From: Sphaerochaetaceae bacterium
GTDB lineage: Bacteria > Spirochaetota > Spirochaetia > Sphaerochaetales > Sphaerochaetaceae
Length of the DNA: 64,000 bases
NCBI GenBank assembly: GCA_963677735.1
Contig: OY782505.1
Coordinates: forward strand, 3,192,770 to 3,256,769
Direction of reading: 5' to 3'
In this document: positions 1 through 16,202 of the stretch, in pieces
How the letters are laid out: every line of letters starts with the position of its first letter
How positions within the stretch are numbered: the first letter of the stretch is position 1
Position numbers and translations under genes: made by a program
The notes under the pieces: model-generated
Seen by the model: the letters and a program-made list of their open reading frames with translations, nothing else
Told to the model about the DNA's origin: nothing
Database searches by the model: none

Positions 1-16
1 CTTTTAAAAAATTCAT
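1..16 (-). CDS. 5' end of a leftward gene running off the window (only 5 codons visible, MNFLK...)
   Basis: The reverse strand reads AAGGAGactaaATGaattttttaaaag, a strong RBS 5 nt before the ATG. The gene is divergent from the TetR gene at 160. It is too short to identify. Confidence 0.3.
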
Positions 17-28
17 TTAGTCTCCTTT

Positions 29-56
29 GTATACACTTATATATAAGTATACACTT
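29..56. promoter_or_regulatory. Operator candidate in a divergent promoter region
   Basis: A perfect 14-bp palindrome ACTTATATATAAGT (35-48) sits inside two direct copies of GTATACACTT (29-38 and 47-56). It lies between the leftward gene start and the TetR gene. Confidence 0.35.
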
Positions 57-159
57 GTATTTTTTTTCTATTAATATAATAATTATATTTGAAAAGCTAA
101 GTCAATATTTCTAAGGAAGTTTGCACACATTGCTTAAATTTGTATACTGAGAGGTTTAA

Positions 160-729
160 ATGAATTTTACTAAAAAAGATTTACCAAATTTAACGAGAAC
201 AAAAAGATGGATAATTTCAGCACTTTTTAGACTGATGGAAACAGATGAATATAAAAAAATAACAATCACACAAATAATTGATGAAGCTGAAATTGCAAGA
301 AGAACTTTTTATGTCCATTATAAAAACAAGCATCAAATTATTAAGGAGTATATTGATGAAACTTTTAGTAGAATTTGGTTAGAATTCAATCAAGCTAAAC
401 AAAAATCACTTTATGATATTGCCTATTATTCTTTTAGTGAATGTTTCAAACATATTGAAATACTAAGAGTATTGCACAAACATAACCTGTCCAATTATTT
501 TTATGAGCAGTTTATAATTAAAATGAATAAAACTACAAAAGAATCTAATTTGGCTGTTTTCGACGTTTCTGATTTTTCTGAATCAGAAATGATATATTTG
601 AACATATTTCATGCTTCAGGTTTGGTTAAAATGATTGACCGATGGATCCAGGATGGTTGTGAAGACACACCAGAAAAAATGGCTGCCTTATATGTTAAGA
701 TTTGTAAGATTGGAATACTAAATGATTGA
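160..729 (+). CDS. TetR/AcrR family transcriptional regulator
   Basis: N-terminal TetR HTH (ITITQIIDEAEIARRTFYVHYKNKHQII). A GAGAGG RBS precedes the ATG at 160. Confidence 0.85.
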   Translation: MNFTKKDLPNLTRTKRWIISALFRLMETDEYKKITITQIIDEAEIARRTFYVHYKNKHQIIKEYIDETFSRIWLEFNQAKQKSLYDIAYYSFSECFKHIEILRVLHKHNLSNYFYEQFIIKMNKTTKESNLAVFDVSDFSESEMIYLNIFHASGLVKMIDRWIQDGCEDTPEKMAALYVKICKIGILND

Positions 730-753
730 AAATAATAAGATGAATCAGAAATA

Positions 754-1416
754 GAAGTTAAAATTATTTGTGGATATGAATTAAGATCTACAGGTTTTAA
801 CCTAAAAAGAGAATTAGATAAAGCTAATATTAATTGTAAAATAATGGCCCCTACTACAATATATAAAAAAAGATGGTAATCGAGTAAAGACAGATAATTT
901 AGATGCTAGAAATTTATCTCAAACATTATTTTAGAAAGAAAAAAGTAAGTAGTTCTAATCTCAGTTGAAGATGAAGCTACTAGAGACTTCATTAGAATGA
1001 GAGATGATATAAAAACACCATAAAAAAGCAAAGTAACAGTTAAAATCATTTATTCTAAGAAGAAATATTCATTACCCATTTCAAGAAGGAGCTTGGACTG
1101 ATGCATACAGATAATAGTTAAAGACTATTAAATTTGATTTAATGATTAATCAAATAACTTATAAAAAATATTTAGTAGAAATATATATATTGAAAGAAGT
1201 TATAGAGCGTTTTGATATAAAGATTGAAGAATTATCTAAAAATGAAAAATATAAAGAAGATGTAAAAAGATTACGGGGCTTTATAGGAATAGATCACATA
1301 TAGCTTTATCTATAGTATGTGAAGTAAAAGATTTTGCAAGATTTAATAAAGAAAGAGAGTTTTCATCATTTATGGGCTATGTGCAAGAGAATTATCTTGT
1401 TTTATCTAGGGAATGA
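754..1416 (+). pseudogene. Degraded, 5'-truncated IS110-family transposase gene (multiple frameshifts and stops)
   Basis: Three-frame reading gives EVKIICGYELRSTGFNLKRELDKANINCKIMAPTTIYKKR, then GNRVKTDNLDARNLSQTLF, then EDEATRDFIRMRDDIK. Further on it gives IALSIVCEVKDFARFNKEREFSSFMGYVQE. These match the conserved IS110 blocks (KTDxxDA; EIGDxxRFxsxxqfxSyxGL). No intact ORF remains. Confidence 0.6.
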
Positions 1417-1876
1417 TAACAAATAATATTTATGTCGAAATTGCATAATTAAAAAACTTAATAAAATGAAAAGTAAAGTAAAAGATGCATAAATAGATTG
1501 CTGACAGTAAAAGATCTAGCTATCTTCGATCAAATTATGATATACAAAATGTGATTCTCGCCATTAAAGAGAAAGAGCTGTAGGCGGATTATTTAGACTA
1601 TTGGTAACCAATCCACGTATATGAAAATAGTCAAATGCTGAAAACTGTAATATATGTTTATCAATTTATTACTATTTTTATTAGATTACATAAAAGTAAA
1701 ATGAAATATTAATAAAAAATAAGTGAAAATAGCTACTTGGCAGTAGTCACACATATGAATTTTTTAAAAATGTCTTAAAAGAAATCTCAAAGCTGAGATT
1801 ACAGTAGGTGTTGAAAAATATTTTCTACTTTTATAAGCGTTATGGTTTTAGAATGTAAAACCAATTTTTAGATAGG

Positions 1877-2386
1877 TCATTCGAATTTTAGTATTTCCAA
1901 TACTGAATTAGATATTTCTTTTTGGTCTAGCGGAGATTCATCTTCTAAAAAAGATAACAAAGAAGCAAAAAGTCCCCCAACAATGAATGTCCTTTGGACA
2001 TGATTAAAAGAATCTTTATATTTCCCTTTAGATAAAACAATATTCAAGTATTTTTCAAAAGGACGGTACATAACCATATGGAGGTTGTTTTTTAGATAAA
2101 GTTTGATATCAGATTTTAAAATTTGCCAAAAATTAAAACATTGAATCAAGGCTTCTTCTAAATCAAATTCTTCGCCTTGAAGTGATGAAATATATTCAGA
2201 GAATACTCGGTCAAAATGAAATTGAAGGATATCTTCCTTCTTCTCAAAATTTCTATAAAAAGTAAGTCTTGCTACTCCCGCTTTTTCAGTTATATCAGTA
2301 ATGGTAATCTGATCATAGGACTTTTCTTTTAATAGTAATAGTAATGCATCAGCTATCCATTGTTTACTTCTTTCTGATTGTTTCAT
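1877..2386 (-). CDS. TetR/AcrR family transcriptional regulator
   Basis: TetR HTH ITITDITEKAGVARLTFYRNFEKKEDIL. Transcribed divergently from the 2527-6011 operon. Confidence 0.85.
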   Translation of the reverse strand: MKQSERSKQWIADALLLLLKEKSYDQITITDITEKAGVARLTFYRNFEKKEDILQFHFDRVFSEYISSLQGEEFDLEEALIQCFNFWQILKSDIKLYLKNNLHMVMYRPFEKYLNIVLSKGKYKDSFNHVQRTFIVGGLFASLLSFLEDESPLDQKEISNSVLEILKFE

Positions 2387-2469
2387 AGCTTATAACCTCC
2401 ATAAGTGTAATAAAATCAACTATATTGTATCTTCTATTCTAGATTTTAATTAATTATAATTGAGTTATT

Positions 2470-2498
2470 AGTGTTACAGTTATAACACTTGTTACACT
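2470..2498. promoter_or_regulatory. Candidate TetR operator
   Basis: Inverted repeat AGTGTTA-cagtta-TAACACT (2470-2489), immediately followed by a further TGTTACACT half-site. It lies about 30 nt upstream of the 2527 start. Confidence 0.4.
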
Positions 2499-2526
2499 TT
2501 TAGTCAAAATTTAGGAGAAACAAATT

Positions 2527-3153
2527 ATGATTCTATTTTTAACTTTACTTAGTGGTGTTGCGTGGACAATAGTTTATATTGAAGCAATTAGGAAAGGGTT
2601 TAAAGATAAAACTTATGCAATGCCGCTTTTTGCATTAGGACTTAATATTGCATGGGAAGCTATTTATTCTATTACTGGGTTAGCAAATCCTAGTATTCAA
2701 ACGCCTGTTAATTTTATTTGGTTTGGACTTGATGTAGTGATTGTTATTACGTATTTTTTATATGGCAAAAAAGAATTTCCTAATAATGCAAAGAAATATT
2801 TTATACCATACAGCATACTTGCCTTTGCAACAACCTTTGCAATTCAGATGGCTTTTTACTTACATTTTTCTAGATCAGAAGCAGCTTCATATTCAGCATT
2901 TTTACAAAATGCAGCCATGTCGATACTATTTTTGACAATGATATTTCAACGTCAAAGCAAAAAAGGTCAATCCGTACTTCTATCTGTTGCTAAATGGATA
3001 GGTACTCTTGCTCCTGTTATAAGTTTTGGTTTATTAACGGAATTCAATATATTTGTTTTTATAACAGGAATTATATGTAGTGTGTTTGATATTATTTATA
3101 TCGTTGTATTAGTAAAATGGGATTCCATTAAAACTTCTACAAAAACATCGTAA
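2527..3153 (+). CDS. Polytopic membrane protein, Pyr4/PaxB-like (transmembrane terpene cyclase family candidate)
   Basis: AGGAGA RBS. About 6-7 hydrophobic helices. The block WTIVYIEAIRKGFKDKTYAMPLFALGLNIAWEAIYS resembles the conserved N-terminal block of fungal PaxB/Pyr4-type cyclases as I recall them. There is a C-terminal Asp in SVFDIIY. It is certainly a membrane protein; the family call is tentative. Confidence 0.5.
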   Translation: MILFLTLLSGVAWTIVYIEAIRKGFKDKTYAMPLFALGLNIAWEAIYSITGLANPSIQTPVNFIWFGLDVVIVITYFLYGKKEFPNNAKKYFIPYSILAFATTFAIQMAFYLHFSRSEAASYSAFLQNAAMSILFLTMIFQRQSKKGQSVLLSVAKWIGTLAPVISFGLLTEFNIFVFITGIICSVFDIIYIVVLVKWDSIKTSTKTS

Positions 3154-3171
3154 TTTTAAGGTGAAACTAAA

Positions 3172-3966
3172 GTGACAATTTTATATTTTACTGCAACTGG
3201 AAATAGTCTTTACGTGGCGAAACGGTTAGGGGGGACTTTATTTTCAGTTACTCAACAAATTAACCTAGAAAATTTTGTATATAAAGATGACAAGATTGGG
3301 ATAATATTTCCAGTTTATGGGCTATCGATTTCACAGTATATTGAAAACTTTATTAGCAAATGTACTTTTGAGACAAATTATCTTTATGCAATTATGACTT
3401 ATGGTCAATATGCGGGTGGAGTAACAGGATGTCTTAATAAGATTGCAAGGAAAAATTCTCTAGAGTTTTCATATATCAATTCTGTAAAAATGATTGATAA
3501 TTGGTTGCCTGGATTTAAAATGGAAGATCAGATAGGTACTGTAGGAGAAAAAGATGTCAACGGCCAGCTTGAGAAAATAATAAGGGATGTTAATTCAAAT
3601 GTGTGTTGGCAAAAAAAAGATAGCATTTTTGATAGATTTGCAACATCTATTTTAAAAAAAATGAAACCAACAAAGAAAAAGAAAGTAAGGTTTCACACAG
3701 AAGGTTTGAGAGTGTCAAATTATTTTTTCATTGATAATTCGTGTGTAGAATGCAGTATATGTACGAAAGTCTGCCCGGTAAAAAATGTTGAATTAAAGAA
3801 TTCAAAACCTTCTTTCAATGATAAATGCATCAGTTGCCTTGCTTGTGTGCAAAATTGTCCGAAAAAGGCGATTAGGGTAAAAGGTGAAAAAAGTCACGAG
3901 AGATACAGAAATTCAGAAATAAGCTTACAAGAAATAGTTGAATCTAATAATAGAATTGATAAATAG
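3172..3966 (+). CDS. Flavodoxin-like / 2x[4Fe-4S] ferredoxin fusion protein (EFR1-type)
   Basis: GTG start with AAGGTGA RBS. N-terminal flavodoxin-like YFTATGNSLYVAKRL. Two ferredoxin motifs, CVECSICTKVCP and CISCLACVQNCP. Confidence 0.8.
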   Translation: MTILYFTATGNSLYVAKRLGGTLFSVTQQINLENFVYKDDKIGIIFPVYGLSISQYIENFISKCTFETNYLYAIMTYGQYAGGVTGCLNKIARKNSLEFSYINSVKMIDNWLPGFKMEDQIGTVGEKDVNGQLEKIIRDVNSNVCWQKKDSIFDRFATSILKKMKPTKKKKVRFHTEGLRVSNYFFIDNSCVECSICTKVCPVKNVELKNSKPSFNDKCISCLACVQNCPKKAIRVKGEKSHERYRNSEISLQEIVESNNRIDK

Positions 3967-4001
3967 CGATAAATAATACAATAAGATTAGGAGTAATTAG
4001 G

Positions 4002-4370
4002 ATGACAATATTTGATAAATACTTTACTTTTTGGGACTCTGCTCTTTTAGATGAGTCTGCATTTAATGAATTGATGGACTTGTTTGCTGATGATGTAGTG
4101 GTTAAAGCACCTCAAGGCGAAGTGAAAGGTAAAGATAAATTAGGATTCGGTATTAAAGAAACATTAAAAAATTATTTTTCTATGAAACATGTTTGGAAAG
4201 AAAAAAATACGGATTATGGGCTAAAAGCGACATGGGCAGTTGTTCATGAATTGAAAAATGGAGAAATGCATGCTGCCGTAGGTGTTGATATTATCCAACT
4301 CAATGAATCCGGAAAAATAAAGCATTTAGAAATCAGACCGGAACAAAATATAACAAAAAAAATCCAATAA
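4002..4370 (+). CDS. NTF2/SnoaL-like small protein
   Basis: 122 aa with an AGGAG RBS. Its size and alpha+beta cone-like pattern (FWDSALLDESAFNELMDLFADDVVV...) fit SnoaL/NTF2-like proteins. Confidence 0.55.
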   Translation: MTIFDKYFTFWDSALLDESAFNELMDLFADDVVVKAPQGEVKGKDKLGFGIKETLKNYFSMKHVWKEKNTDYGLKATWAVVHELKNGEMHAAVGVDIIQLNESGKIKHLEIRPEQNITKKIQ

Positions 4371-4441
4371 TATTATTCTGCAATAAAGCAGGGTAGTATT
4401 TTGGTTTTTTCTAAAATTGATAATTTAAAAAGGAGGGAGGT

Positions 4442-5206
4442 ATGAATAATGCAGATACAGTTTATGTAAATATGCATAAAATATATGCAGGGAGGTTAAA
4501 ACTCGGTGTTGAAAGCGTTCCTGTTGAGTTTTATCTTATTGAGCATAAAAAAGGAATAATACTCTTTGATACTGGTATGCCTAGAGAATGTATGGATAAT
4601 CTCTCTGAATATTGGGGCGAGATGATAGCTAGTATGTCTGAAGTTGATATGACAGAGAATGAGTTAGTAGTAAATGCTATTAATAATCTTGGGTTTCAAG
4701 CTGAAGATATTAAATATGTCATTCAAAGCCATCTTCACTTAGATCACAGTGGCGGTATTGGATTATTTCCAAATGCAAACTATATAGTACAGCAAAGCGA
4801 ATGGGCTGCAGCACATGATTCCAAATATCCTTTTCCTATTAATCAACTTTACATACACAAAGATTTTGATAAACCAGTAAATTGGAAATTTCTCAAAGGA
4901 ATTGATGAAGATTGCTATGATCTGTTTGATGATGGATCTGTAATAGTTTGGTTTACGCCAGGTCATACACCAGGTCATCAAAGTTTAGTAATAAATACTA
5001 AAAATCACGGACACATTTTATTAACAGGAGATGCCTGTAACGATTATGCCACTTTACAAGGGGAAACAGGTTTTTCTTTGTGCTGGAATGAAGAAGAGTG
5101 TATAAAATCATTGAAGCGTATTCAAAAAGCAAAAAAAGATGGTTGGTTGCTACTCTTTCCTCATGATTCAAAGAATTGGAATAAAAATGAAAAATATTAT
5201 GATTAA
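4442..5206 (+). CDS. N-acyl homoserine lactonase-like metallo-beta-lactamase fold hydrolase (AiiA-like)
   Basis: HxHxDH motif SHLHLDHSGG, plus TPGHTPGHQSL and FPHD, closely paralleling the Bacillus AiiA motifs (HLHFDHAGG, PGHTPGHQS). GGAGGGAGG RBS. Confidence 0.8.
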   Translation: MNNADTVYVNMHKIYAGRLKLGVESVPVEFYLIEHKKGIILFDTGMPRECMDNLSEYWGEMIASMSEVDMTENELVVNAINNLGFQAEDIKYVIQSHLHLDHSGGIGLFPNANYIVQQSEWAAAHDSKYPFPINQLYIHKDFDKPVNWKFLKGIDEDCYDLFDDGSVIVWFTPGHTPGHQSLVINTKNHGHILLTGDACNDYATLQGETGFSLCWNEEECIKSLKRIQKAKKDGWLLLFPHDSKNWNKNEKYYD

Positions 5207-5225
5207 TCATAAGGAGGATAATTTT

Positions 5226-6011
5226 ATGGAACTATTAAAAGACAAAATAGCTATTGTAACTGGTGGAGCAAGTGGTATGGGTGCTGCCTATGCAAAACGT
5301 TTTATTGAAGAAGGGGCAAGGGTAATCTTTACTGATATCAATGAAGAACTCGGAACTGCTTATCAAGTTGAGTTAGGAAATCAAGCAGAATTCTATAAAC
5401 ATGATGTAGCTGATGAACAGCAATGGAAAGATCTTGCTTCGTTGGTTAAAGAAAAATATGGACATGTTGATGTTTTAGTAAATAATGCAGGTATTGGTGG
5501 TAACAAACCTATTCTAGATTTTCCAGTAGACTTATATATGCGTGTAGTTTCAGTAGACCAAGTTTCTGTACTTTTAGGTATGAAATATATTGGTGGTTTA
5601 ATGGCAAAACAAGGTAGCGGATCTATTATCAATATTGCTTCCACAAGTGGTCTTGATGGGCAGATATTTGGTGCGGCATATTGTAGTGCTAAATGGGCTG
5701 TTAGAGCTCTATCAAAAACTGGAGCACTTGAGTTTGCAAAATACAATGTGCGTGTAAATTGCTTGCTTCCCGGTTTTGTAGATACACCTTTAGTTTCTGC
5801 TCCTGAATATGCACAACTAAGAGCAAATTATGAAACGACAATTCCTCTTGGTCGGGCAGGGAAAGTCTCTGAAATTGCCAAGGCCTGTTTATTTCTTGCT
5901 TCAGATATGTCAAGCTATTGTAATGGCACAGAGTTAGTAGTTGATGGAGGATTGAGTTCCAATGCCCACGCATATTCTGATTATATGATTCGAAATTTAA
6001 AAATGTGGTAA
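5226..6011 (+). CDS. Classical short-chain dehydrogenase/reductase (3-alpha/20-beta-hydroxysteroid dehydrogenase-like)
   Basis: TGGASGMG cofactor motif, NNAG, catalytic YCSAKWAV. I chose the ATG at 5226 (MELLKDK) because AAGGAGGA lies 8 nt upstream. The ORF track opens earlier, at 5139. Confidence 0.85.
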   Translation: MELLKDKIAIVTGGASGMGAAYAKRFIEEGARVIFTDINEELGTAYQVELGNQAEFYKHDVADEQQWKDLASLVKEKYGHVDVLVNNAGIGGNKPILDFPVDLYMRVVSVDQVSVLLGMKYIGGLMAKQGSGSIINIASTSGLDGQIFGAAYCSAKWAVRALSKTGALEFAKYNVRVNCLLPGFVDTPLVSAPEYAQLRANYETTIPLGRAGKVSEIAKACLFLASDMSSYCNGTELVVDGGLSSNAHAYSDYMIRNLKMW

Positions 6012-6092
6012 TTGTGAAACATATTTAAATCATATTATTGTGGCGGATTGAAGTTTATTACTCAACCAACACTAGTCGTGATATTAATTTAA

Positions 6093-6345
6093 TTATTGCT
6101 CCTCTTGTTTTATTAAGTTTAAGAAACTTTCAACATCAGGAGCATTAAAAAGATTATCTCTAAAAGATTTATGACTTAATATACGAGCTAATCTACTTAA
6201 TATTCTTAAATGGTAACTACTACTTTTTTTGGGGCAACAAGTAAAAATACAAGTTTAACATTTTTTTTATCAAGTGCTTGTAGATTAATTTAAGTTTTAA
6301 GAGGCCTAACTGTTATCAATGATTTTTCCATTGATGAACATCTAT
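6093..6345 (-). pseudogene. Fragment of a PTS EIIA (fructose/mannitol/Ntr type) gene, frameshifted
   Basis: The reverse strand reads ...NVKLVFLLVAP, then a frameshift in an A-run, then KKSSSYHLRILSRLARILSHKSFRDNLFNAPDVESFLNLIKQEEQ*. This matches the typical EIIA-2 C-terminus (vxlvFllaxP....HLxxLaxLsrlLxdxxfrxxLxxaxxxeei). The upstream part is riddled with stops. Confidence 0.4.
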
Positions 6346-6787
6346 TTCAAATCCGCAATATTTAAATAAGCGTTTTCTAACAAACCCGCACTTTTTTAAA
6401 TAGCTAAGTCTTTGCAAAATAACAATTCTCATAAATTGATTTTATCCCCAACACTTAAGAATGTCTAAGAAAATTCAAAATGCTTAAGTAGTTTTATTAA
6501 AGAATAATTATTATCTACACTGAATTACTATTAGTGTGTAATTGTAAAAATTTGTGTTAATTTTTACAAATAGGATTCACAAATATTACTGAACAAACTT
6601 CATAGATACATAGTATTTTTTTAAAGTTCTTTAAGTCTTATAATTTTATTTAAAAAAAAATTAAACGAAATCTTATTAAAGATTATATTTTCAAATTAAT
6701 TTGATATAAAACTTGTTTATATCAAGTATGTTCGATAGTGATAGAATATACTTGATGAATATTGATTATAGTGATAATATAAATATT

Positions 6788-8017
6788 ATGAATATAAAAC
6801 AATTAAGATTAGTTTATTCGATACATTTATTTTTAAACTATTTACCTCTTGGGATATATTTTCCTATCAGTACTCTCTTTTTATTAGAAAAGGGATATTC
6901 ACTTGGATGGATAGGAACTGCTATGTCTATATTTTCTATCACGATCTTTTTGTTTGAGTTGCCGACGGGTGGTTTTGCAGACAAATATGGAAGAATAAAT
7001 ATATATAGAATAAGCAGAGTTATATATATTTTAAGCTTGTTAATCTTATTATTCTTTAATACTTTATTCTCTTTGTTTTTTTCAATGTTTTTATACGGGG
7101 TTGCTCGTGCTTTAAGTTCAGGAACAATGGAAGCCTGGTTTGTTGATATGCATGATACAGTTGATAGTAAAATAAATTTATCCAAAAGTATGAGTATTGT
7201 AGCAGGGGTTGCTCCAGCTGCACTAGGTATAAGTACTTTGTTAGGTGGATTTATACCCGACTTAGGAATTAAATTGAATTTGTTTAATTTACAAGGAAGC
7301 TATAATTTTAATATTGTGATAGCAATAATAGCTGTTGTAATGCATTTGATTTTGAATATTATATTTTTCAAAGAGACTCAAAGACAATCTAATGAAGAGA
7401 CAATAAATGAATATTGTAAAAATATTGTTAATTTTTTTAATAAATCAAAATCCCTTAAATACTTGATAGCTATTTCTTTTTGTCTTGGAATTGGATTAAA
7501 CTCAATTGAAAGTTTTTGGCAACCAAAGGTACAAGAAATTGCTCCAAACAGTCCAACATTTATTTTAGGAGTACTTGCATCATGTTATTTTTTTGCAGCT
7601 ACAGTTGGTAGTTTATTTTCAAATAAATTAACCCAATATTTAGGCGAAAAAAGAACATTATTTTTAATGAAATTATTTCATGGAATTACCTTAATAGCTT
7701 TAAGCTATAGTGCATCTTTGGTTGGTTTTTCTATAGGATTTGTTACTATATTTATATTCCATGGTGCTTTGAATGGCCCTCATCAAACATTGCTACACAA
7801 TTCAATACCCAATCAATATAGATCAAGTTTTCTTTCAGTAGATTCTTTAGCATTACAATTAGGTGGTGGATTGTCTGCTTTAATATTAGGCTGGGTTGCA
7901 CAATATAATTCAATATCTTTAGTTTGGAAAATTGCTGGATTGTTTGTAATTATTTCTTCATTCTTATATCTACCAATAAAGCAATCAAAAGGAGAAAATT
8001 GTGAATCTACAATATAA
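6788..8017 (+). CDS. MFS transporter
   Basis: About 12 hydrophobic segments. MFS loop motif GGFADKYGR. The ORF opens at TTG 6713; I chose ATG 6788 (MNIKQLRLVY...) as the most MFS-like N-terminus. No candidate start has a clear RBS, so the start is uncertain. Confidence 0.8.
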   Translation: MNIKQLRLVYSIHLFLNYLPLGIYFPISTLFLLEKGYSLGWIGTAMSIFSITIFLFELPTGGFADKYGRINIYRISRVIYILSLLILLFFNTLFSLFFSMFLYGVARALSSGTMEAWFVDMHDTVDSKINLSKSMSIVAGVAPAALGISTLLGGFIPDLGIKLNLFNLQGSYNFNIVIAIIAVVMHLILNIIFFKETQRQSNEETINEYCKNIVNFFNKSKSLKYLIAISFCLGIGLNSIESFWQPKVQEIAPNSPTFILGVLASCYFFAATVGSLFSNKLTQYLGEKRTLFLMKLFHGITLIALSYSASLVGFSIGFVTIFIFHGALNGPHQTLLHNSIPNQYRSSFLSVDSLALQLGGGLSALILGWVAQYNSISLVWKIAGLFVIISSFLYLPIKQSKGENCESTI

Positions 8018-9002
8018 TGAATCAGTAGAATTAGTATTAGCCTTTTTCGCTTGGACCTCTCAAGAGATGGGAGAATCATATTTTATGAATCAAATCCCTA
8101 AAGAAATAATTGAGTGGAAAGATAATCAAAATAAAAAATATTCTAACTTTTTTTTAGAACAATCAAAGTTATTGAGCTCAGAATTTCTTTTATTAATCTT
8201 TTCATTAATTAAGATTATTAACGTGAATAAAATTAATAGTGTTGATGAATTTATTCAATATTTGTCAAAGCTATCGGGAAAGTCTCTAGCTAAATATGTA
8301 ATTATGGGCGAGGATTTTGATTATGATATAGATCAATTAATTGAAAATCCTAAATTAGGTAAAGAAGTGATTGATAAAGCTGATGGAACAGTTAGAAAAA
8401 ATGAGGATGAACTATTTGTTGATTTTTTAAGCCACCCTGATTTTTATAGAGAACAATTATTTATACATTTAAAAAAGTTTTATAAATATTCAGTTCTTCC
8501 TTATCAAAAAGATATTTCTAAAAGAATGAATAGGCTATTAGAAGAAGAAAAAAAATTTGCTTTAAAGAATAAAAAAGCTTTTTTTGAGACAAGATTACAT
8601 TATAATACCCAATCAAATTGGGAAAATTTTCCAGAAACTATATACATTAGTTATTATGATTGTCTCGATTCTATACATATTAATTTACCATCTTTAGTAA
8701 TTTATGGTTGGAAAAATAAAGATTTCAATTCTAATCCTAATATTGAAGAAATCTATGGATTAATTACAGATGAAACGAGAAGAAATATTATTAAAGGTTT
8801 ATCAAAAAAAGATATGTTCAGTCGTGAAATTTCTGACAAATGGAATCTTTCACCATCAACTGTTTCATATCATATGAATAAGCTATATTCATTGGGATTA
8901 ATTAATCATAAACCAGGTCCAAGAAAGCGCTTATATCATGTTCTAAATAAAGAAAAACTTAACCAATTACTAGAATATTTAAAAAAGGATTTAATGGGAT
9001 AG
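8001..9002 (+). CDS. ArsR/SmtB-type winged-helix regulator with a ~250-aa N-terminal extension (DUF5937-like architecture)
   Basis: GTG start with AAAGGAGA RBS, overlapping the MFS stop by 17 nt. C-terminal wHTH DETRRNIIKGLSKKDMFSREISDKWNLSPSTVSYHMNKLYSLGLINH. Confidence 0.7.
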   Translation: MNLQYNESVELVLAFFAWTSQEMGESYFMNQIPKEIIEWKDNQNKKYSNFFLEQSKLLSSEFLLLIFSLIKIINVNKINSVDEFIQYLSKLSGKSLAKYVIMGEDFDYDIDQLIENPKLGKEVIDKADGTVRKNEDELFVDFLSHPDFYREQLFIHLKKFYKYSVLPYQKDISKRMNRLLEEEKKFALKNKKAFFETRLHYNTQSNWENFPETIYISYYDCLDSIHINLPSLVIYGWKNKDFNSNPNIEEIYGLITDETRRNIIKGLSKKDMFSREISDKWNLSPSTVSYHMNKLYSLGLINHKPGPRKRLYHVLNKEKLNQLLEYLKKDLMG

Positions 9003-9173
9003 AATAATTAATTATTTTGATGTTTGAATGAAAGTTTTAAAAAAGTTGATTTGTCCATTTTAAACTCTTTATGTATATACTTAGAGCTGTTATGCATTTA
9101 ACTTATTTAGGATTTACATAATATAAATTAATTAAAACAAAATTTATAAAGAACAAAAAGGATAAAAAGTAAT

Positions 9174-9692
9174 ATGAATAAAACAGAATTAATAAAAGAT
9201 ACTAGCTCTATAAATATTTTGCCAATAGAGAAATGTGATATAAATAAATATTTTATTGCAATCAAAGAAATGGATGAAGAAGCTAAATATTATACAAATA
9301 CTTTGCTTGATTTTACTTTTAGCCAGATAGAAGAATATGTTTTAAAAATTGAAAAAAGTAATTCAAGGAACCTTTTTTTAATTATTCTAGGAAATGAATA
9401 TCTTGGAGAAGTGGCATTATCAGATATAAGTGATAAGTCTTGTCATTTTAGAATATGTATATATAAAAAAGAAAATTTTTCAAAAGGATATGGTAATTTC
9501 GCTTTGAATTGGATAATTCAATATGCTTTTTCTACACTAAACCTTAGTGAAATTGAGCTAGAAGTTTATCCTTTTAATAAAAGAGCAATAAACTTATATG
9601 AAAAATTTGGATTTAAAGAAACCCATAGAATTTTTGATAATTCAAATTCTAAACCATATGATGAAATTATTACAATGTTGCTAAAAAAATAA
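9174..9692 (+). CDS. GNAT family N-acetyltransferase
   Basis: 172 aa. GNAT-like core (LGEVALSDI..., SKGYGNFALNWIIQYAF, NKRAINLYEKFGFKE). Confidence 0.75.
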   Translation: MNKTELIKDTSSINILPIEKCDINKYFIAIKEMDEEAKYYTNTLLDFTFSQIEEYVLKIEKSNSRNLFLIILGNEYLGEVALSDISDKSCHFRICIYKKENFSKGYGNFALNWIIQYAFSTLNLSEIELEVYPFNKRAINLYEKFGFKETHRIFDNSNSKPYDEIITMLLKK

Positions 9693-10432: not shown

Positions 10433-11530
10433 ATGAACCGTGCAGTAAACATTTTATCGATTAGTTTAATATTATTTATTTCTTTAATTTTTTCTTCATG
10501 CACAAAAAATGTAGAAGAAAAAGATTTTCTTGTGATAGATGAAGTTTCAGCAGTAACTGACTACACTCAAGTAGTATCCTCAGCTGTTGAAATAAGAAAA
10601 GCCGCTTTGCGGGATCGTGTGCTTGCTAGTGGAACTATTCAAGGCGTCGAGGAAGTAAATATCAAAGCACGGACTTCAGGCGTTATAAAATCAATAGATT
10701 TTAATTTGGGTTCAAAATTGGAAAAAGGCCAAGTGCTTTTAGTCTTAGATGATACAATTCCATCATTGAACGTTAGTCAGTTGAATAATCAGTATGAAAA
10801 TAGCGTAAAAGAACTTAATGCAAATAAACAATTATATGATCGAGGAGCTATCTCGCTTGTTCAATTGACCCAAACTCAAAGCAATGTTGATGGTCTTAAA
10901 GCTCAACTTGAACAAGTTAAAACTAATCTGAATAATACAAAAATCATAACACCTATAGCTGGTAGTGTGGCAGAGAAAACCAATTTTGTTGTTGGTGATT
11001 TAATACAAGCGGGAGAGTCAATTGTTAGAGTTGTAGATCTTGAACATCTTCGAATTACTGTTGCTGTAGGTCAAAAACAACTCTTCCTTATTAAGGAAGG
11101 TGCCCCAGCTCTCATTACTATTAATACACCTACAGAGATTATTGAAGCACAAGGAATTGTAAGTGGTATCAGTGCTAGCAGTGATTCAAGAACAGGTAGT
11201 TGGTCTGTACTTGTAGATTTTACTAATCCAAAACCTTCTGTTATTAAGGCAGGAATTAGTGCTGATGTAATAATTTTTAATGAAGATGCACCAATTTATA
11301 CATTGGTACCAAACTCTGCAATGGTTTATCGCGATGGGGTAACTTCAATATATATGGTAGATGGCAATAGTGCAAAACAGGTTAATGTGAAAGTAATTGA
11401 CCAATACGGAGACCAAAGTGCCATTGAAAGTCTTGATGAAAATATTGACCTCGTAGGAAAGAAAGTACTAGTAAGTGCGCTCTCTCGTATTTTAGATGGT
11501 ACCTCTGTAGTAACACAAGAAAACTTATAA
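10433..11530 (+). CDS. Efflux RND transporter periplasmic adaptor subunit (HlyD/AcrA family), lipoprotein
   Basis: Lipobox LIFSSC. Lipoyl/barrel-sandwich and coiled-coil pattern, with TKIITPIAGSV. GAGGTG RBS. Confidence 0.85.
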   Translation: MNRAVNILSISLILFISLIFSSCTKNVEEKDFLVIDEVSAVTDYTQVVSSAVEIRKAALRDRVLASGTIQGVEEVNIKARTSGVIKSIDFNLGSKLEKGQVLLVLDDTIPSLNVSQLNNQYENSVKELNANKQLYDRGAISLVQLTQTQSNVDGLKAQLEQVKTNLNNTKIITPIAGSVAEKTNFVVGDLIQAGESIVRVVDLEHLRITVAVGQKQLFLIKEGAPALITINTPTEIIEAQGIVSGISASSDSRTGSWSVLVDFTNPKPSVIKAGISADVIIFNEDAPIYTLVPNSAMVYRDGVTSIYMVDGNSAKQVNVKVIDQYGDQSAIESLDENIDLVGKKVLVSALSRILDGTSVVTQENL

Positions 11531-11541
11531 AGGAACAGATT

Positions 11542-14500
11542 ATGGATAACCAAAAAAGATTTAGTATTGGTAGATTCTCTGTAACCAAGCCGGTGATGGT
11601 AAATATATTAATGATAACCGTTCTACTATTAGGTGGCTTAAGTTTAGCACGTCTACCACAAGAACAGTTTGCAGAGATTCCATTTTTTTGGGTCAACGTC
11701 ATTGTTCCTTATCCTGGAGTTGGAGCTGAAGATTTAGAGTCATCAATTACTATCCCAGTAGAAAACGCATTTCAAGGTATGGATAAACTTAAGAAAATAA
11801 GCTCAACCACTAGTGAAGGGCTTAGTGTTGTTAGGGTTGAATTTGATGATGGTATTAGTCAGCAAGAGTTTAATTCTCTTTATCAAGAGGCTCAAACTAG
11901 GTTCAGTCAAGTTGTATTACCAGATGGTGTTCTTGACCCTATTGTTGATGATTTTTCATCATCTGACTTTCTTCCTGTTATTGAGGTTGTAATCAGTGGT
12001 AATTTACCATATGAGCAATTAAGAGAACAAGCTGTATCCCTACAGAATAAGATACTAAAGGTAAAGGACGTCGCTGATGTTGAGTTACTTGGACTTCCTG
12101 ATAGACAGATTTTAATTAACTTGGATAATAGTAGTCTTATTTCTAAGGGGTTGAGTGTTAATGAAGTTGTTAGAGCTATTTCTGATCAAAACAGTGTTAT
12201 CCCTAGTGGAACATTAAATACGGGTTCAAGGGAGTATCTTTTAAGGACTCTTGGTTCAATTGATAATGTATCTGACTTCGGTTCTGTAATTGTAAGACGT
12301 TCTACAGATTCCTCAGGATTAGTAAGAGTTAGTGATGTTGCAGAGGTAGTTGATGGCTTTGATCCAGATTCATCTCTTGCTCGTTTCAATGGTAACCCTT
12401 CTGTAAATTTAAGGGTTATTAAAGTTGTAAAAGGTAACTCAGTTGATATAGTAGAAGGTGTTACTAAAATTGTAGAAGAAGAGAGAATGCAAAATAATGT
12501 AGGAGCAAAGATTACTCTATTTAATGACTCAACTGTCCAAATCGCTTCAAGTTTAAGTGTGCTTTCTACAAACGCAATTATGGGGCTTTTTTTACTAGTT
12601 CTTATCCTTTGGCTATTTATTGGACTTCGTAATGCTCTAATAACAGCTTTAGGTATACCTGTAACTTTTGCTTTGACATTTCTTGTTTTAGACTTACTAG
12701 GAGAGACAATAAACACAAATACTTTATTTGGTCTAGTTTTAGTTTTAGGGCTTATAGTCGACCATGCAATTGTAATTATAGAGAATTCTTATCGGTTACA
12801 GTCTAACGGACTTCTACGTCATGATGCAGCAATAGAGGGGTCAAATCAAGTTATATGGCCAGTTGTTGCGGCAACAGCAACAACTGTAGCTGCCTTCTTG
12901 CCTCTTATGCTTCTACCAGGGACTATTGGAAAGTTTCTCAGAGTTATTCCTTTAACCGTAACAATTGCTCTAATAGTTAGTACTGGAGAAGCCCTTTTCT
13001 TTCTCCCAAGTCATTATGCTGAGTGGGGGCCAAGAGAAAAGAAGAAAAGGAAAAAAGAACCCGGGATTTGGTTTATTAAAATACAGAGAGGTTATTCTAA
13101 ATTCTTTGCTAAGGTTTATAAATTTAAAATTCTCGCCCTTATTCTTGCTTTAGTGCTTACAATTGGTGTCTTCTCTCTAATAGGATCTCTACGTCAAGAT
13201 CTTTTTTCAGCTGAAGATTATTCCTATTTCAATATTGAGATACTAACTCCGCGAGGTACTTCTTTAGATCAGACAAATATAATTGTTGAACAGTATGAGG
13301 ATATTCTGCTTAATAAGGTAGGAAATGGTGAGATAATGTCTATTAGTACTAAGATAGGGACATTAGGAAGTGGAGAAGCTAATTCCACTCAAGCTCAAAT
13401 AACTGTTGACCTTGCTGAGATTGGTGAAGGTAGAATGAGAAGTATTGATGAAATTATTTCTGAAGTTCAAAATGAAACCTATTATCTAAGTGGAGTTGAA
13501 AAGGTGTTTTTCCGTAAAGCACAAAATGGCCCGCCTACTGCAGATCCTCTGAGTTTTCGTTTCTCCGGAGATGAGTATAAGCAGATTATTGATTCATCAA
13601 ATGCTATAGTAAATTTGTTGAACTCCATTGATGGAGTAACAAATGTCGAGAGTGACTTTATAGCAGGTAGCCCTGAACTTCGTATTATTATTAATCAAGA
13701 ACGTGCAAGCGCACTTGGAATAACAGTGGCTAGTGTAGGCTCCTATATTCGTGCTCGATTTGATAATATACCAGCAGGAATTCTCTTTGAGAAGAATGAA
13801 CAAATAGATATTGTAGTACGTTTTGCGACATCTGATTCTAGACAGTATGAAAATCTTGAGCAATTATTGATACCCACAGATGATGGAAGACAGATTCCTT
13901 TATCTAGCATTGCAACCATTAAACTTGATAATTCCTTAGGATCGATTCGTAGGGTTGAAGGTAAACGTGAGATAACAGTTACTGCAAATGCTGTTGAATC
14001 CTTAGATCTTCAACAGGTTAACCAACGAGTAGAAGAACTTTGGAATAAAAATCTATCTAGCCGTTATCCTAATGTATCTTTTAAAGTAGGTGGAGAATTT
14101 GACGACTTTAATACTTTAATATTTGATATACTAAGAGTCTTTATACTTGGAATATTTTTAATCTACCTGATTCTTGGAACACAATTTAATAGTTATAGTC
14201 AGCCTCTATTGATATTATTTTCTATACCGTTTGCCTTTATTGGTGTTGTTTTATATTTATTTATTTCAGGTACTCCACTTTCAACAACAGTTATCTACTC
14301 TAGTGTAGCATTGGCAGGGATTGCCGTAAATGATGCAATTGTGTTGATTAGTTTTATTAATGAATTGAGAGCGACTGGAATATCTGTCAAGGAAGCTATA
14401 TCAGAAGCAGCTAGAACAAGACTTCGACCTATTATACTAACATCCTTAACTACGATTGTTGGCCTATTGCCAACAGCGATTGGAATAGGTGGTTACTCTG

Positions 14501-14628
14501 TAGTTTGGTCGCCTATGGCTAGTACTATTATCTTTGGATTAATATTTTCTACACTAACTACATTGTTCATAATTCCCATTCTATATGGAACTATATATGA
14601 CAAAAAGAAGAAGAGGAGTGAAGCATGA
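11542..14628 (+). CDS. RND efflux pump inner-membrane permease (AcrB/AcrD/AcrF superfamily)
   Basis: 1028 aa. Duplicated architecture: TM1, large periplasmic loop, then 5 TMs, twice. The N-terminus FSVTKPVMVNILMITVLLLGGLSLARLPQEQFAEI is typical. Confidence 0.9.
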   Translation: MDNQKRFSIGRFSVTKPVMVNILMITVLLLGGLSLARLPQEQFAEIPFFWVNVIVPYPGVGAEDLESSITIPVENAFQGMDKLKKISSTTSEGLSVVRVEFDDGISQQEFNSLYQEAQTRFSQVVLPDGVLDPIVDDFSSSDFLPVIEVVISGNLPYEQLREQAVSLQNKILKVKDVADVELLGLPDRQILINLDNSSLISKGLSVNEVVRAISDQNSVIPSGTLNTGSREYLLRTLGSIDNVSDFGSVIVRRSTDSSGLVRVSDVAEVVDGFDPDSSLARFNGNPSVNLRVIKVVKGNSVDIVEGVTKIVEEERMQNNVGAKITLFNDSTVQIASSLSVLSTNAIMGLFLLVLILWLFIGLRNALITALGIPVTFALTFLVLDLLGETINTNTLFGLVLVLGLIVDHAIVIIENSYRLQSNGLLRHDAAIEGSNQVIWPVVAATATTVAAFLPLMLLPGTIGKFLRVIPLTVTIALIVSTGEALFFLPSHYAEWGPREKKKRKKEPGIWFIKIQRGYSKFFAKVYKFKILALILALVLTIGVFSLIGSLRQDLFSAEDYSYFNIEILTPRGTSLDQTNIIVEQYEDILLNKVGNGEIMSISTKIGTLGSGEANSTQAQITVDLAEIGEGRMRSIDEIISEVQNETYYLSGVEKVFFRKAQNGPPTADPLSFRFSGDEYKQIIDSSNAIVNLLNSIDGVTNVESDFIAGSPELRIIINQERASALGITVASVGSYIRARFDNIPAGILFEKNEQIDIVVRFATSDSRQYENLEQLLIPTDDGRQIPLSSIATIKLDNSLGSIRRVEGKREITVTANAVESLDLQQVNQRVEELWNKNLSSRYPNVSFKVGGEFDDFNTLIFDILRVFILGIFLIYLILGTQFNSYSQPLLILFSIPFAFIGVVLYLFISGTPLSTTVIYSSVALAGIAVNDAIVLISFINELRATGISVKEAISEAARTRLRPIILTSLTTIVGLLPTAIGIGGYSVVWSPMASTIIFGLIFSTLTTLFIIPILYGTIYDKKKKRSEA

Positions 14629-16202
14629 AAAAATATCTACTACTAATATTAAGTATCCTATTCTCTGTTGCATCATCTTTTGCTGCAACTAACTATCCTT
14701 CTCTAGATATACAATATGAACTAGAAAATGAAGATGAAGTTGTTCTAGATCAAGAAAGCTTGAATACATTTATTCAACAATGGCAGGATGATTCTATTAT
14801 CACTTTCTCTGATGCAGAAAAAGAGTTGTATATTGCTCTTAGAGAGAGAAATATAGATCTTGAACAATTACAATCATTATATAATATACAACAAGAGCAG
14901 CTAGAGTATCAAAAGAGAGAGCAAGGTTTCAAGATAGGGCTTACTTCTCAACCCCTTTACTCTATAAGTAGAAGTATTAACCAAACTTCTACTGGAGGTT
15001 TTGATCTTTCCAATACCTTTGGTTTAGGTGCCTCAATCTCTAAACAACTTAGCACAGGGGCAGTTGCAACTTTAAGTGCAGCTCAAAAGTCTAGCTTAAC
15101 GAAAAATAGCACAACAGGATCTCAGTGGACGTGGACACAGAGTCCCTCCGCAAACCTTTCTTTGAATCAACCCTTATGGATTGGTGATGGTTTAATAGAT
15201 GTAGATTACTCGAAAAAACAGATAGAAAAATTAGTTATATCATCTGAGAATGCAAAGCTTTCTTATGACCAACTTTTAGAAGCCCTTGTCACTCAGGGAA
15301 ATAGCCAACTATCAGCCCTTCAAGCTCTGAAAGAGAGAAGATTTCTTCTAGGTGAGCAACTTATCATAGAGCAATCTTTAATTAAAGACGCTAAGAAAGA
15401 TTTAGAATCAGGTTGGATAAGTCGCAACTCATATGATGTAAGAGTTCTTAGCATCAATCAAATACGTTACTCGCTTGATGAGATTGAGAGGGAAATTGAC
15501 TCTCTAAAAAATTCCCTAGAAACTATATGGGGGAGCGATGATTTTCCTAAACAAATCATTATAGATAAGCAATTATTTGATAGATTACCAACAATTATCT
15601 TTGATAAAGAACAGCTTTTAAATATACTTTTAGCAAATGATTTTGCCTACGCACAGGCAACTAGACAACTGCGTTTAGCTGAGATAGATGCAAAGTTAAA
15701 GAGTCCAAGTGATGCTCCAATGTTAAGCTTATCTCTTCAAATCTATCCTTATTATACTCCAAGTACAGGAGCAGATTTCTTTACATCTTTCGACAATATG
15801 TTTACTAGTAGTGAGAATATATTTTCTTTATCAATAGGTTTTAGTGCTTCAGACCTTTTTCGCTCTGCTACTAATCTATCCTCCTCTATGGCCTCAGAGT
15901 CTGTTTTACAGGCAAAGATAGAGGTTGAGAAGGCTCGTGATGATTTAGAAATACAGGTTGAAGAGATTCAAAGAAATATTAAAGGTTTATTGCTCAACTT
16001 ATCAATTGCTCAGTATGAGTTTGAGCAACGCACAAATGATATAGAAGTGGAGCGAATTAGATTTGATATAGCAATGGCAAATGAGAGTAGTATAAAAGCT
16101 AAAGAAATTGCTTGGTATGACTCTGCCTTTAAGATTTTGCAAACCTTACGCGAGCTAAACTTGATAGCCTTAGACTTAAAAGCTAGAGGATTAGAGTTAT
16201 AA
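14625..16202 (+). CDS. TolC-like outer membrane efflux protein
   Basis: Start overlaps the RND stop (ATGA). Signal peptide ...SVASSFA. Long coiled-coil-rich repeats typical of outer membrane factors. The sequence is divergent. Confidence 0.7.
   Translation: MKKYLLLILSILFSVASSFAATNYPSLDIQYELENEDEVVLDQESLNTFIQQWQDDSIITFSDAEKELYIALRERNIDLEQLQSLYNIQQEQLEYQKREQGFKIGLTSQPLYSISRSINQTSTGGFDLSNTFGLGASISKQLSTGAVATLSAAQKSSLTKNSTTGSQWTWTQSPSANLSLNQPLWIGDGLIDVDYSKKQIEKLVISSENAKLSYDQLLEALVTQGNSQLSALQALKERRFLLGEQLIIEQSLIKDAKKDLESGWISRNSYDVRVLSINQIRYSLDEIEREIDSLKNSLETIWGSDDFPKQIIIDKQLFDRLPTIIFDKEQLLNILLANDFAYAQATRQLRLAEIDAKLKSPSDAPMLSLSLQIYPYYTPSTGADFFTSFDNMFTSSENIFSLSIGFSASDLFRSATNLSSSMASESVLQAKIEVEKARDDLEIQVEEIQRNIKGLLLNLSIAQYEFEQRTNDIEVERIRFDIAMANESSIKAKEIAWYDSAFKILQTLRELNLIALDLKARGLEL

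Follow-up and report, generated by a model that had tools for sequence, protein, structure and literature searches.

A 64,000-nucleotide stretch of the genome of a Sphaerochaetaceae bacterium (contig OY782505.1, positions 3,192,770 to 3,256,769; hereafter the window) carries a gene for a TetR-family repressor and, divergent from it, five genes. These encode a membrane protein of the Pyr4 family (TMTC), an EFR1-family protein with flavodoxin-like and ferredoxin parts, a XimE-like protein of the NTF2/SnoaL fold (NTF2 protein), a lactonase-like hydrolase of the metallo-beta-lactamase (MBL) fold and a short-chain dehydrogenase/reductase (SDR). The locus is a discrete, horizontally transferred modular unit. 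Its constant core consists of the repressor and operator together with at least one of the two cyclase-type proteins, TMTC and the XimE-like NTF2 protein; the lactonase and the SDR are lineage-specific add-ons. Our favoured, still tentative reading is a TetR-switched cassette, shared by horizontal transfer, that converts a lipophilic prenylated quinone or phenol from the surroundings or renders it harmless. Its role is best read as transformation or detoxification rather than biosynthesis.

The cassette was delimited by comparison with L081, a contig of a metagenome-assembled genome (MAG). The blastn alignment of the two loci formed a single piece with 83.6% nucleotide identity between unrelated flanks. 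Homology to the sister cassette stopped at position 6035, and no convincing terminal inverted or direct repeats were found at the cassette ends. In L081, phage-tail and reverse-transcriptase genes flanked the cassette on one side and genes for a multidrug and toxic compound extrusion (MATE) transporter and a helix-turn-helix (HTH) protein on the other. The L081 cassette adjoined phage-tail/baseplate genes and a pair of reverse transcriptase and bAvd genes (positions 1-6800) that looks like a diversity-generating retroelement. In L084 and L085, the block was present at approximately 85% nucleotide identity with internal deletions. The next relatives of the individual genes were located in Firmicutes (Bengtsoniella and Eubacteriales), indicating that the cassette has crossed phyla. 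The intact cassette genes showed purifying selection, with dN/dS values of 0.08-0.34. A remnant of an IS110-family transposase (Transposase_20, 1142-1426) directly upstream of the cassette was the sole trace of mobility in the window. GC content was considered as a mark of foreign origin and rejected, as it was 0.318 in the cassette and 0.301 in the window, with lower values confined to the non-coding flanks.

Cassettes headed by orthologous TetR genes held different cargo. L081 comprised the same five cargo genes as the window, with a frameshifted lactonase represented by three high-scoring segment pairs in three frames and no called gene. L084 and L085 had intact genes for EFR1 and the NTF2 protein and a TMTC gene with a 410-bp internal deletion (window 2594 to 3004); their lactonase gene was down to two fragments and the SDR gene was absent. 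The Eubacteriales MAG L086 had its NTF2 gene (window 3989-4369) joined directly to a TetR gene with promoter region (window 1864-2507, 76% nucleotide identity). Two Bengtsoniella cassettes carried TMTC followed by a FUSC_2-family membrane protein (L001) and TMTC, an IS110 insertion, the NTF2 gene and then FUSC_2 (L002). The first-pass annotation of the sequence had proposed one five-gene pathway acting on a cyclic or lactone-bearing molecule. A conserved five-gene pathway was not supported, given the differences in cargo between L081, L084/L085, L086, L001 and L002. Nor was a lactone-bearing substrate, an idea based on the lactonase, which was intact only in the window and had decayed in both other lineages that once had it. 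This decay in the sister cassettes indicates that the lactonase is not central to the cassette. Bengtsoniella held two full cassettes and a partial third copy (L002, 4107-4292), and an intact IS110 transposase was located inside the cassette (L002, 8774-10270). The mini-cassette of L086 lay between two genes for flavoproteins of the enoate-reductase type, each of approximately 670 amino acids with old yellow enzyme (OYE) and Pyr_redox_2 domains (4213-6240 and 7477-9471).

The TetR protein matched PF00440 with 34 bits (cut-off 24). Orthologues with 66-79% amino acid identity stood at the head of every cassette variant and showed dN/dS values of 0.14-0.34. A -10-like TTATAAT at 2454-2460 was directly followed by the operator at 2470-2498, which comprised the palindrome AGTGTTA-N6-TAACACT and direct repeats of TGTTACA at 2472 and 2490. 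A further complementary half-site at 2403-2413 adjoined the tetR start. Despite the differing cargo, 64 positions of the control region were invariant across six cassette variants, including TTATAAT and the subsequent TGTAACA/TGTTACA half-sites, which are reverse complements of each other. The repeat-rich operator of the first-pass annotation was therefore found again in six loci, and the sequence pattern supports its view of a unit under TetR control, with TetR probably binding the operator repeats. One regulator-operator pair switching different cargo points to parallel or optional functions for one class of signal rather than to an obligate linear pathway. The arrangement resembles the TetR-TetA and QacR-QacA modules, which are likewise accessory and horizontally transferred and in which a small TetR gene is divergent from its cargo, with palindromic repeats overlapping the cargo promoter. 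In contrast to these modules, the cargo consists of a cyclase-family membrane protein and soluble redox and hydrolytic enzymes and includes no known efflux pump. The regulatory design is ordinary TetR logic, and the novel aspects are the cargo and the way it is distributed. A second, unrelated TetR-family gene (160-729; TetR_N and TetR_C_8) was located 1.1 kb upstream of the cassette TetR gene and had no obvious divergent cargo.

The membrane protein had been described as cyclase-like, and the profile match was clear: TMTC scored 97.4 bits against PF25129 (E 1.4e-27; cut-off 27), with residues 4-169 on profile positions 19-186 of 227. The AlphaFold2 (AF2) model, with a predicted local distance difference test score (pLDDT) of 94.6, showed seven long helices and a short C-terminal one. 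E44, D69 and D188 were kept in 95-100% of 106 representatives with a median identity of 36%; for E44, which is part of a WE motif, and D188 the values were 95-97%. All three residues were also kept in homologues from Nostoc and S. clavuligerus at 29-35% identity. The active-site residues of Pyr4 are E63 and D218 (PMC6486709), to which E44 and D188 may correspond, judged by position only. The dN/dS value of TMTC against L081 was 0.095. A search of PDB sequences with the TMTC profile returned no solved relative. The best Foldseek matches of the model were cystinosin, the KDEL receptor and SWEET, with a probability of 1.00, TM scores of 0.55-0.63 and E-values of approximately 1e-2.

Relatives of TMTC were widespread, with 608 in a set of 5.8 billion proteins, approximately 1,500 family clusters at 50% identity and 397 loci in species-representative genomes. 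Carriers were Lachnospiraceae, Oscillospiraceae, Lactobacillaceae, Listeria, Lactococcus, Chloroflexi, Bifidobacterium, Microbacteriaceae and Streptomyces. Identity to TMTC of the window was 47-65%, and 47-50% across phyla. A tblastn search of plasmids with TMTC matched only Streptomyces and Nostoc plasmids and no Firmicute plasmid. In the literature, nothing was found on this TMTC clade. Like the characterised Pyr4-like cyclases Pyr4, AscF, XiaH, TylF and the zig-cluster cyclase, TMTC belongs to PF25129, has a compact build of seven transmembrane helices and approximately 200-240 amino acids, and contains a conserved buried Glu and Asp that may be equivalent to those of the Pyr4 active site. 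The characterised members are located in meroterpenoid or terpenoid clusters with a prenyltransferase and an epoxidase, whereas the TMTC clade adjoins a TetR gene, is often alone or accompanied by a flavodoxin-fold reductase, occurs in a Spirochaete and in anaerobic Firmicutes of the gut and rumen, and is unusually conserved, with approximately 50% identity between phyla. Tandem or extra copies of Pyr4-family genes were present in L031 (7346-7984) and L059 (8642-9310), the latter with a weak Pfam match to MtN3_slv (SWEET).

The neighbourhood of TMTC was surveyed in the best 80 of the 397 loci, and a Pfam census covered 141 genes located no more than 1.5 kb from TMTC in 38 low-GC loci. The sole broadly recurrent neighbour was a TetR gene, present in approximately 40 of the 80 loci, about 30 times divergent and about 10 times co-directional just upstream. 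On a Streptomyces plasmid, the TetR and TMTC genes overlapped as an operon. TetR_N was counted 21 times and TetR_C_8 14 times in the census, and every other family, such as SDR, Flavodoxin_2, FUSC_2, GNAT, Fer4 and CrtC, at most three times. The proposal that the five genes stay together in other genomes was borne out in the nearest relatives, where the block was kept, but not across the 80 genomes, in which only TetR recurred beside TMTC. In the 38-locus census, the families counted two or more times included no prenyltransferase, UbiA, polyprenyl synthase or terpene synthase, and profile searches of the window flanks revealed no prenyltransferase, polyprenyl synthase, polyketide synthase (PKS) or oxygenase. 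A 2026 survey of bacterial Pyr4-like cyclases kept 264 of 1107, mostly actinobacterial, and set aside 843, which were not studied there, because they lacked terpenoid neighbours (PMC13307353).

The commonest kind of co-directional gene downstream of TMTC encoded a flavodoxin-fold reductase, and four non-orthologous kinds were present. EFR1 was located there in the window clade, in Erysipelotrichaceae (L032) and in Paeniclostridium (L035). An NQO-type Flavodoxin_2 gene took this position in Listeria (with a stop/start overlap), Lactococcus (decayed) and Bifidobacterium, a Flavodoxin_4 gene in L006 and in Paratissierella (L098, overlapping), and an FNR-like gene in Flexilinea (L004). This replacement by analogous reductases suggests that what TMTC does is linked to a reduction step. 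Flavodoxin_2 proteins typically reduce quinones. CrtC-like genes were found in TMTC operons of Parasporobacterium (L020) and of a Eubacteriaceae MAG (L030, two in tandem); they were detected through Pfam, and BLAST missed the other copies. CrtC-like lipocalin hydratases act on isoprenoid double bonds. Membrane proteins of the FUSC_2 family followed TMTC or the NTF2 gene in L001, L002, L019 and L020. Pfam describes this family as fusaric acid resistance protein-like, and it has kinship to aromatic-acid exporters. A Nostoc homologue adjoined an isopentenyl phosphate kinase gene. Five loci (L098, 5232-5984; L022, 7197-7955; L005; L006; L026) held a gene for a soluble protein of approximately 250 amino acids without Pfam match, located directly ahead of the Pyr4-family gene and read in the same direction. 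In Lactobacillus acetotolerans DSM 20749 (L011), the TetR and Pyr4-family genes filled an entire contig of 1605 bp, which suggests repeats or mobile DNA on both sides.

The second cyclase-type protein of the cassette, the NTF2 protein, scored 26.4 bits against SnoaL_2, marginally under the cut-off of 27, and its fold was confirmed by an AF2 model with a pLDDT of 90.6. Foldseek matched this model to XimE (6isk) with a TM score of 0.88, a root-mean-square deviation of 1.5 Å and an E-value of 2.8e-9. The uncharacterised Exiguobacterium protein 3ER7 scored equally (TM 0.88), and ketosteroid isomerases came next (TM 0.66-0.79); the closest structure overall was 3ER7, not XimE. XimE acts on epoxidised 3-geranyl-4-hydroxybenzoate to build the benzopyran ring of xiamenmycin (PMC4053376), and its functional residues are Y46, H102 and E136 (PMC8827043). 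In a profile alignment, these were paired with Y7, H63 and D96, all invariant in the seven-member family. The two proteins are alike in length (124 amino acids in XimE and 122 in the NTF2 protein), fold and the presence of counterparts of the three functional residues, at 26% identity, and differ in the acid residue, which is Glu in XimE and Asp in the NTF2 protein. On this residue evidence, the NTF2 protein may work like XimE. The partners of XimE, the epoxidase XimD, the prenyltransferase XimB and the chorismate lyase XimC, have no counterpart in the cassette, and neither the cassette nor its variants contained a partner gene for a flavin epoxidase or a prenyltransferase. The NTF2 protein family comprised only eight members in 5.8 billion proteins, and its gene was located in TetR/TMTC cassettes in four of seven contexts. 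A steroid or bile-acid pathway was considered in view of the best match of the SDR to a hydroxysteroid dehydrogenase (HSDH), the fold similarity to ketosteroid isomerases and the OYE-type reductases of L086. It was not adopted, as XimE and 3ER7 fitted the NTF2 protein better than the ketosteroid isomerases (TM 0.88 against 0.66-0.79; identity 26-28% against 13-19%) and the SDR label was generic.

EFR1 matched NF038196 with 183.9 bits (cut-off 75). It contained two CxxCxxCxxxCP motifs at residues 191 and 219 (CVECSICTKVCP and CISCLACVQNCP) and a weak Flavodoxin_5 match at the N-terminus; nothing on the function of EFR1 was found in the literature. The lactonase was related to PF00753 (Lactamase_B) with 68.5 bits and contained the zinc motif HLHLDH at residue 97. 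Its best matches in the PDB were solved N-acyl homoserine lactone (AHL) lactonases with E-values of 1e-34 to 3e-39. With the quorum-quenching lactonases AiiA and AttM it shares the MBL fold and the HxHxDH motif, and they are its best sequence matches. However, its NCBIfam scores of 205.7 bits for AttM (cut-off 390) and 147.4 bits for AiiA (cut-off 375) were approximately half of the equivalog cut-offs, and the cassette offers no AHL or gamma-butyrolactone context. A metagenome scan for relatives of the lactonase yielded one weak locus only. The SDR contained the cofactor motif TGGASGMG (TGxxxGxG) at residue 12 and the catalytic motif YCSAK (YxxxK) at residue 152 and had 92% amino acid identity to its counterpart in L081. 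Its best PDB match was the 3alpha,20beta-HSDH 2hsd (E 8e-51), with many unrelated SDRs scoring nearly as well. Only a generic NCBIfam subfamily cut-off was passed and no equivalog cut-off was reached, so that the hydroxysteroid type assigned in the first-pass annotation was a best-hit label only. Like the SDR, the lactonase is a generic representative of its superfamily.

All six open reading frames (ORFs) were found where the first-pass annotation had placed them, with five tightly packed genes on the plus strand (2527-6011) divergent from the TetR gene on the minus strand (Table 1). The gaps between successive cargo genes were 18, 35, 71 and 19 nt, and each downstream cargo gene was preceded by a strong Shine-Dalgarno sequence (AAGGTG, TAGGAG, AAGGAGGGAGG and TAAGGAGGA). 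The SDR most likely starts at the position given in Table 1 rather than at 5139 of the ORF list. A hairpin with a free energy of -15.1 kcal/mol (z -4.9), followed by a T-run, was located after the third cargo gene. It was not kept in the two closest relatives, L081 and L084, and was for this reason rejected as a conserved terminator. No promoter-like site with room ahead of the ribosome-binding site was found in the 71-nt gap between the third and fourth genes. The short gaps and ribosome-binding sites favour co-transcription of the five genes from one promoter, with the hairpin as a caveat.

Table 1. Features of the cassette, in positions of the window.
Feature	Position	Strand	Evidence
Transferable cassette (TetR gene and five cargo genes)	1847-6035	none	single blastn alignment to L081 7321-11525
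TetR-family repressor, 169 aa	1877-2386	-	TetR_N, E 2.5e-8
Shared control region	2387-2526	none	-10-like TTATAAT and operator repeats
TMTC, Pyr4-family membrane protein with seven transmembrane helices, 208 aa	2527-3153	+	PF25129, 97.4 bits
EFR1-family flavodoxin-like and 2x[4Fe-4S] ferredoxin protein, 264 aa	3172-3966	+	NF038196
XimE-like NTF2/SnoaL-fold protein, 122 aa	4002-4370	+	AF2 model and Foldseek
Hairpin and T-run between genes 3 and 4; possible partial terminator	4365-4403	+	consensus scan
MBL-fold lactonase-like hydrolase, 254 aa; accessory cargo	4442-5206	+	Lactamase_B
Classical SDR oxidoreductase, 261 aa; accessory cargo	5226-6011	+	adh_short_C2, 210 bits

Downstream of the SDR gene, approximately 700 bp of AT-rich sequence (6012-6712; GC approximately 0.24) contained no ORF of at least 60 amino acids. 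It was followed by a major facilitator superfamily transporter gene that overlapped by 17 nt with the gene for a 333-amino-acid protein (6713-9002). This protein had an ArsR-type HTH at its C-terminus (approximately residues 255-305) and a long N-terminal region without domain match. A tripartite efflux set of the resistance-nodulation-division (RND) type (10433-16202) consisted of an adaptor, a permease of 1028 amino acids and a third gene for a protein of 525 amino acids, which had no NCBIfam match and may be the outer-membrane factor. An RND system downstream of the cassette fits a diderm host. The pyruvate kinase of the host grouped at 90% identity or more with proteins named for Sphaerochaetaceae, which together with the RND set marks the host as a low-GC member of this family.

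The closest characterised relatives of the two mutually unrelated cyclase-type proteins, TMTC and the NTF2 protein, cyclise the prenyl chain of prenylated aromatics, and the recurrent partners fit quinone or prenyl chemistry. In the favoured reading, a lipophilic inducer, most likely a prenylated quinone or phenol from the surroundings, would bind TetR, which would leave the TGTAACA/TGTTACA repeats just after the -10 box and allow transcription to start. In the membrane, TMTC would protonate a double bond or epoxide of the side chain and cyclise or isomerise that chain. EFR1 could supply low-potential electrons, for example for the conversion of a quinone to the quinol, and the XimE-like protein would use acid-base catalysis to close or open an O-heterocycle. 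In cassettes that have them, the SDR and the lactonase may further oxidise and hydrolyse the product. The architecture of the cassette, with its regulatory unit, modularity, dispensable lactonase and SDR and non-biosynthetic setting, is well supported; the substrate class and the chemistry are inferences. In Bacillus subtilis, the quinone and electrophile stress regulons of MhqR, YodB and CatR are controlled by MarR/DUF24-type regulators and are not known to contain Pyr4-family or XimE-like proteins. With the surroundings of the TMTC and XimE-like genes in different genomes they share flavodoxin-fold quinone/azo reductases, nitroreductase, glyoxalase, aldo-keto reductase, SDR, OYE-type enoate reductases, DoxX and HxlR or TetR regulators. 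This likeness concerns gene content only; the regulator types differ, with TetR in the cassette.

Several observations weigh against this reading. The cassette and its host context offer no epoxidase or oxygenase, though relatives of Pyr4 and XimE typically act on epoxides. Many TMTC loci consisted of TetR and TMTC only, and most were without an enzyme partner. EFR1 relatives also occurred without TMTC nearby, and the nearest EFR1 context outside the cassette was uninformative. To our knowledge, several of the hosts do not make isoprenoid quinones, and the substrate would therefore have to be exogenous. The fold search and the buried acids also count here, as both suit the main alternative, in which TMTC is a small seven-helix carrier with a SWEET/PQ-loop fold and moves the TetR ligand out of or into the cell, and the reductases and hydrolases encoded nearby are separate cytoplasmic detoxifiers. 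Cystinosin, the KDEL receptor and SWEET share a 3+1+3 fold of the PQ-loop type, the L059 paralogue had its weak SWEET match, and buried acids suit proton coupling as well as catalysis. TetR with TMTC alone was the commonest arrangement, and a TetR gene beside a small membrane protein is a classical efflux layout. The 47-50% identity across phyla is also unlike that of biosynthetic cyclases, which are divergent. The fold-search E-values were weak, however, and TMTC strongly matched a curated cyclase family, far above its cut-off. E44 and D188 are conserved, and Pyr4 has a Glu and an Asp in its active site. The translational coupling of TMTC and reductase genes in Listeria, Paratissierella and Bifidobacterium hints at shared chemistry. 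The characterised members of the family in PMC13307353 and PMC6486709 are all cyclases. On balance, a carrier appears unlikely, though it is the strongest competitor of the favoured transformation or detoxification cassette.

The remaining explanations were considered less likely than both. A single dedicated pathway in which the genes encode successive steps in the breakdown or tailoring of a lipid, terpenoid or signalling molecule with a ring or a lactone group would agree with the tight packing on one strand, the strong ribosome-binding sites, the whole block in the same order in L081 and the purifying selection on all intact genes; an SDR followed by a lactonase could also form a plausible oxidise-then-hydrolyse pair. 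Such a pathway is improbable given the lactonase pseudogene of L081 and fragments of L084/L085, the internal deletion in TMTC and the missing SDR of the latter, and TetR genes that head the SnoaL-type gene alone (L086) or TMTC without EFR1, MBL and SDR (L001, L002). In addition, none of the four enzymes recurred with TMTC across the 80 genomes, apart from EFR1-like genes in two loci, and the lactonase scored below both equivalog cut-offs. At the other extreme, the genes may be merely adjacent and unrelated in function, with TetR and the first gene as the only unit and the rest as independently expressed passengers. The hairpin and T-run after the third gene and the wide variation of cargo among relatives would fit, but the block moves in one piece, the hairpin is not conserved, the 71-nt gap offers no promoter-like site with room, and the very rare XimE-like gene recurs in TetR/TMTC cassettes in four of its seven known contexts, which makes simple adjacency quite improbable. 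A minimal or decayed biosynthetic cluster, turning an endogenous prenylated metabolite into a meroterpenoid with a prenyltransferase encoded elsewhere, was judged very improbable. Both cyclase-type families are known only from biosynthesis, and the Nostoc homologue lies beside an isopentenyl phosphate kinase gene. Still, no prenyltransferase, polyprenyl synthase, PKS or oxygenase was found in the window flanks or recurred in the 38 loci, and the local TetR, sporadic distribution, frequent gene decay and cross-phylum transfer fit an accessory response module better.

The novelty of the locus is that it combines a second cyclase type and a low-potential electron carrier with a member of a large and conserved clade of a "natural-product" enzyme family, a clade that is linked to TetR and is non-biosynthetic. 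No characterised pathway of this composition was found in the literature, in agreement with the first-pass annotation. Pyr4-like membrane cyclases are actively mined for drug-like meroterpenoids, and the locus and its relatives show what a large part of the 843 of 1107 set aside by the 2026 survey may look like. Transfer has distributed the clade among bacteria of the gut, the rumen and food, some strains of Listeria monocytogenes and Lactococcus lactis among them, and the existence of cultured carriers makes the hypothesis directly testable. Speculatively, and with a rather low probability, an inducible system shared by anaerobic gut, rumen and food bacteria might neutralise membrane-active prenylated quinones and phenols, the reductase making the quinol and TMTC locking the side chain into a redox-inert, chromanol-like ring. 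If true, this would be the first non-biosynthetic role for the Pyr4 family and would explain most of the bacterial Pyr4-like genes dropped by genome mining. Should the substrates of the clade be prenylated quinones or phenols from the diet or from microbes, it would represent a new resistance or biotransformation function in the gut and a new physiological role for the enzyme family, and its compact TetR-ligand pairs could serve as biosensors.

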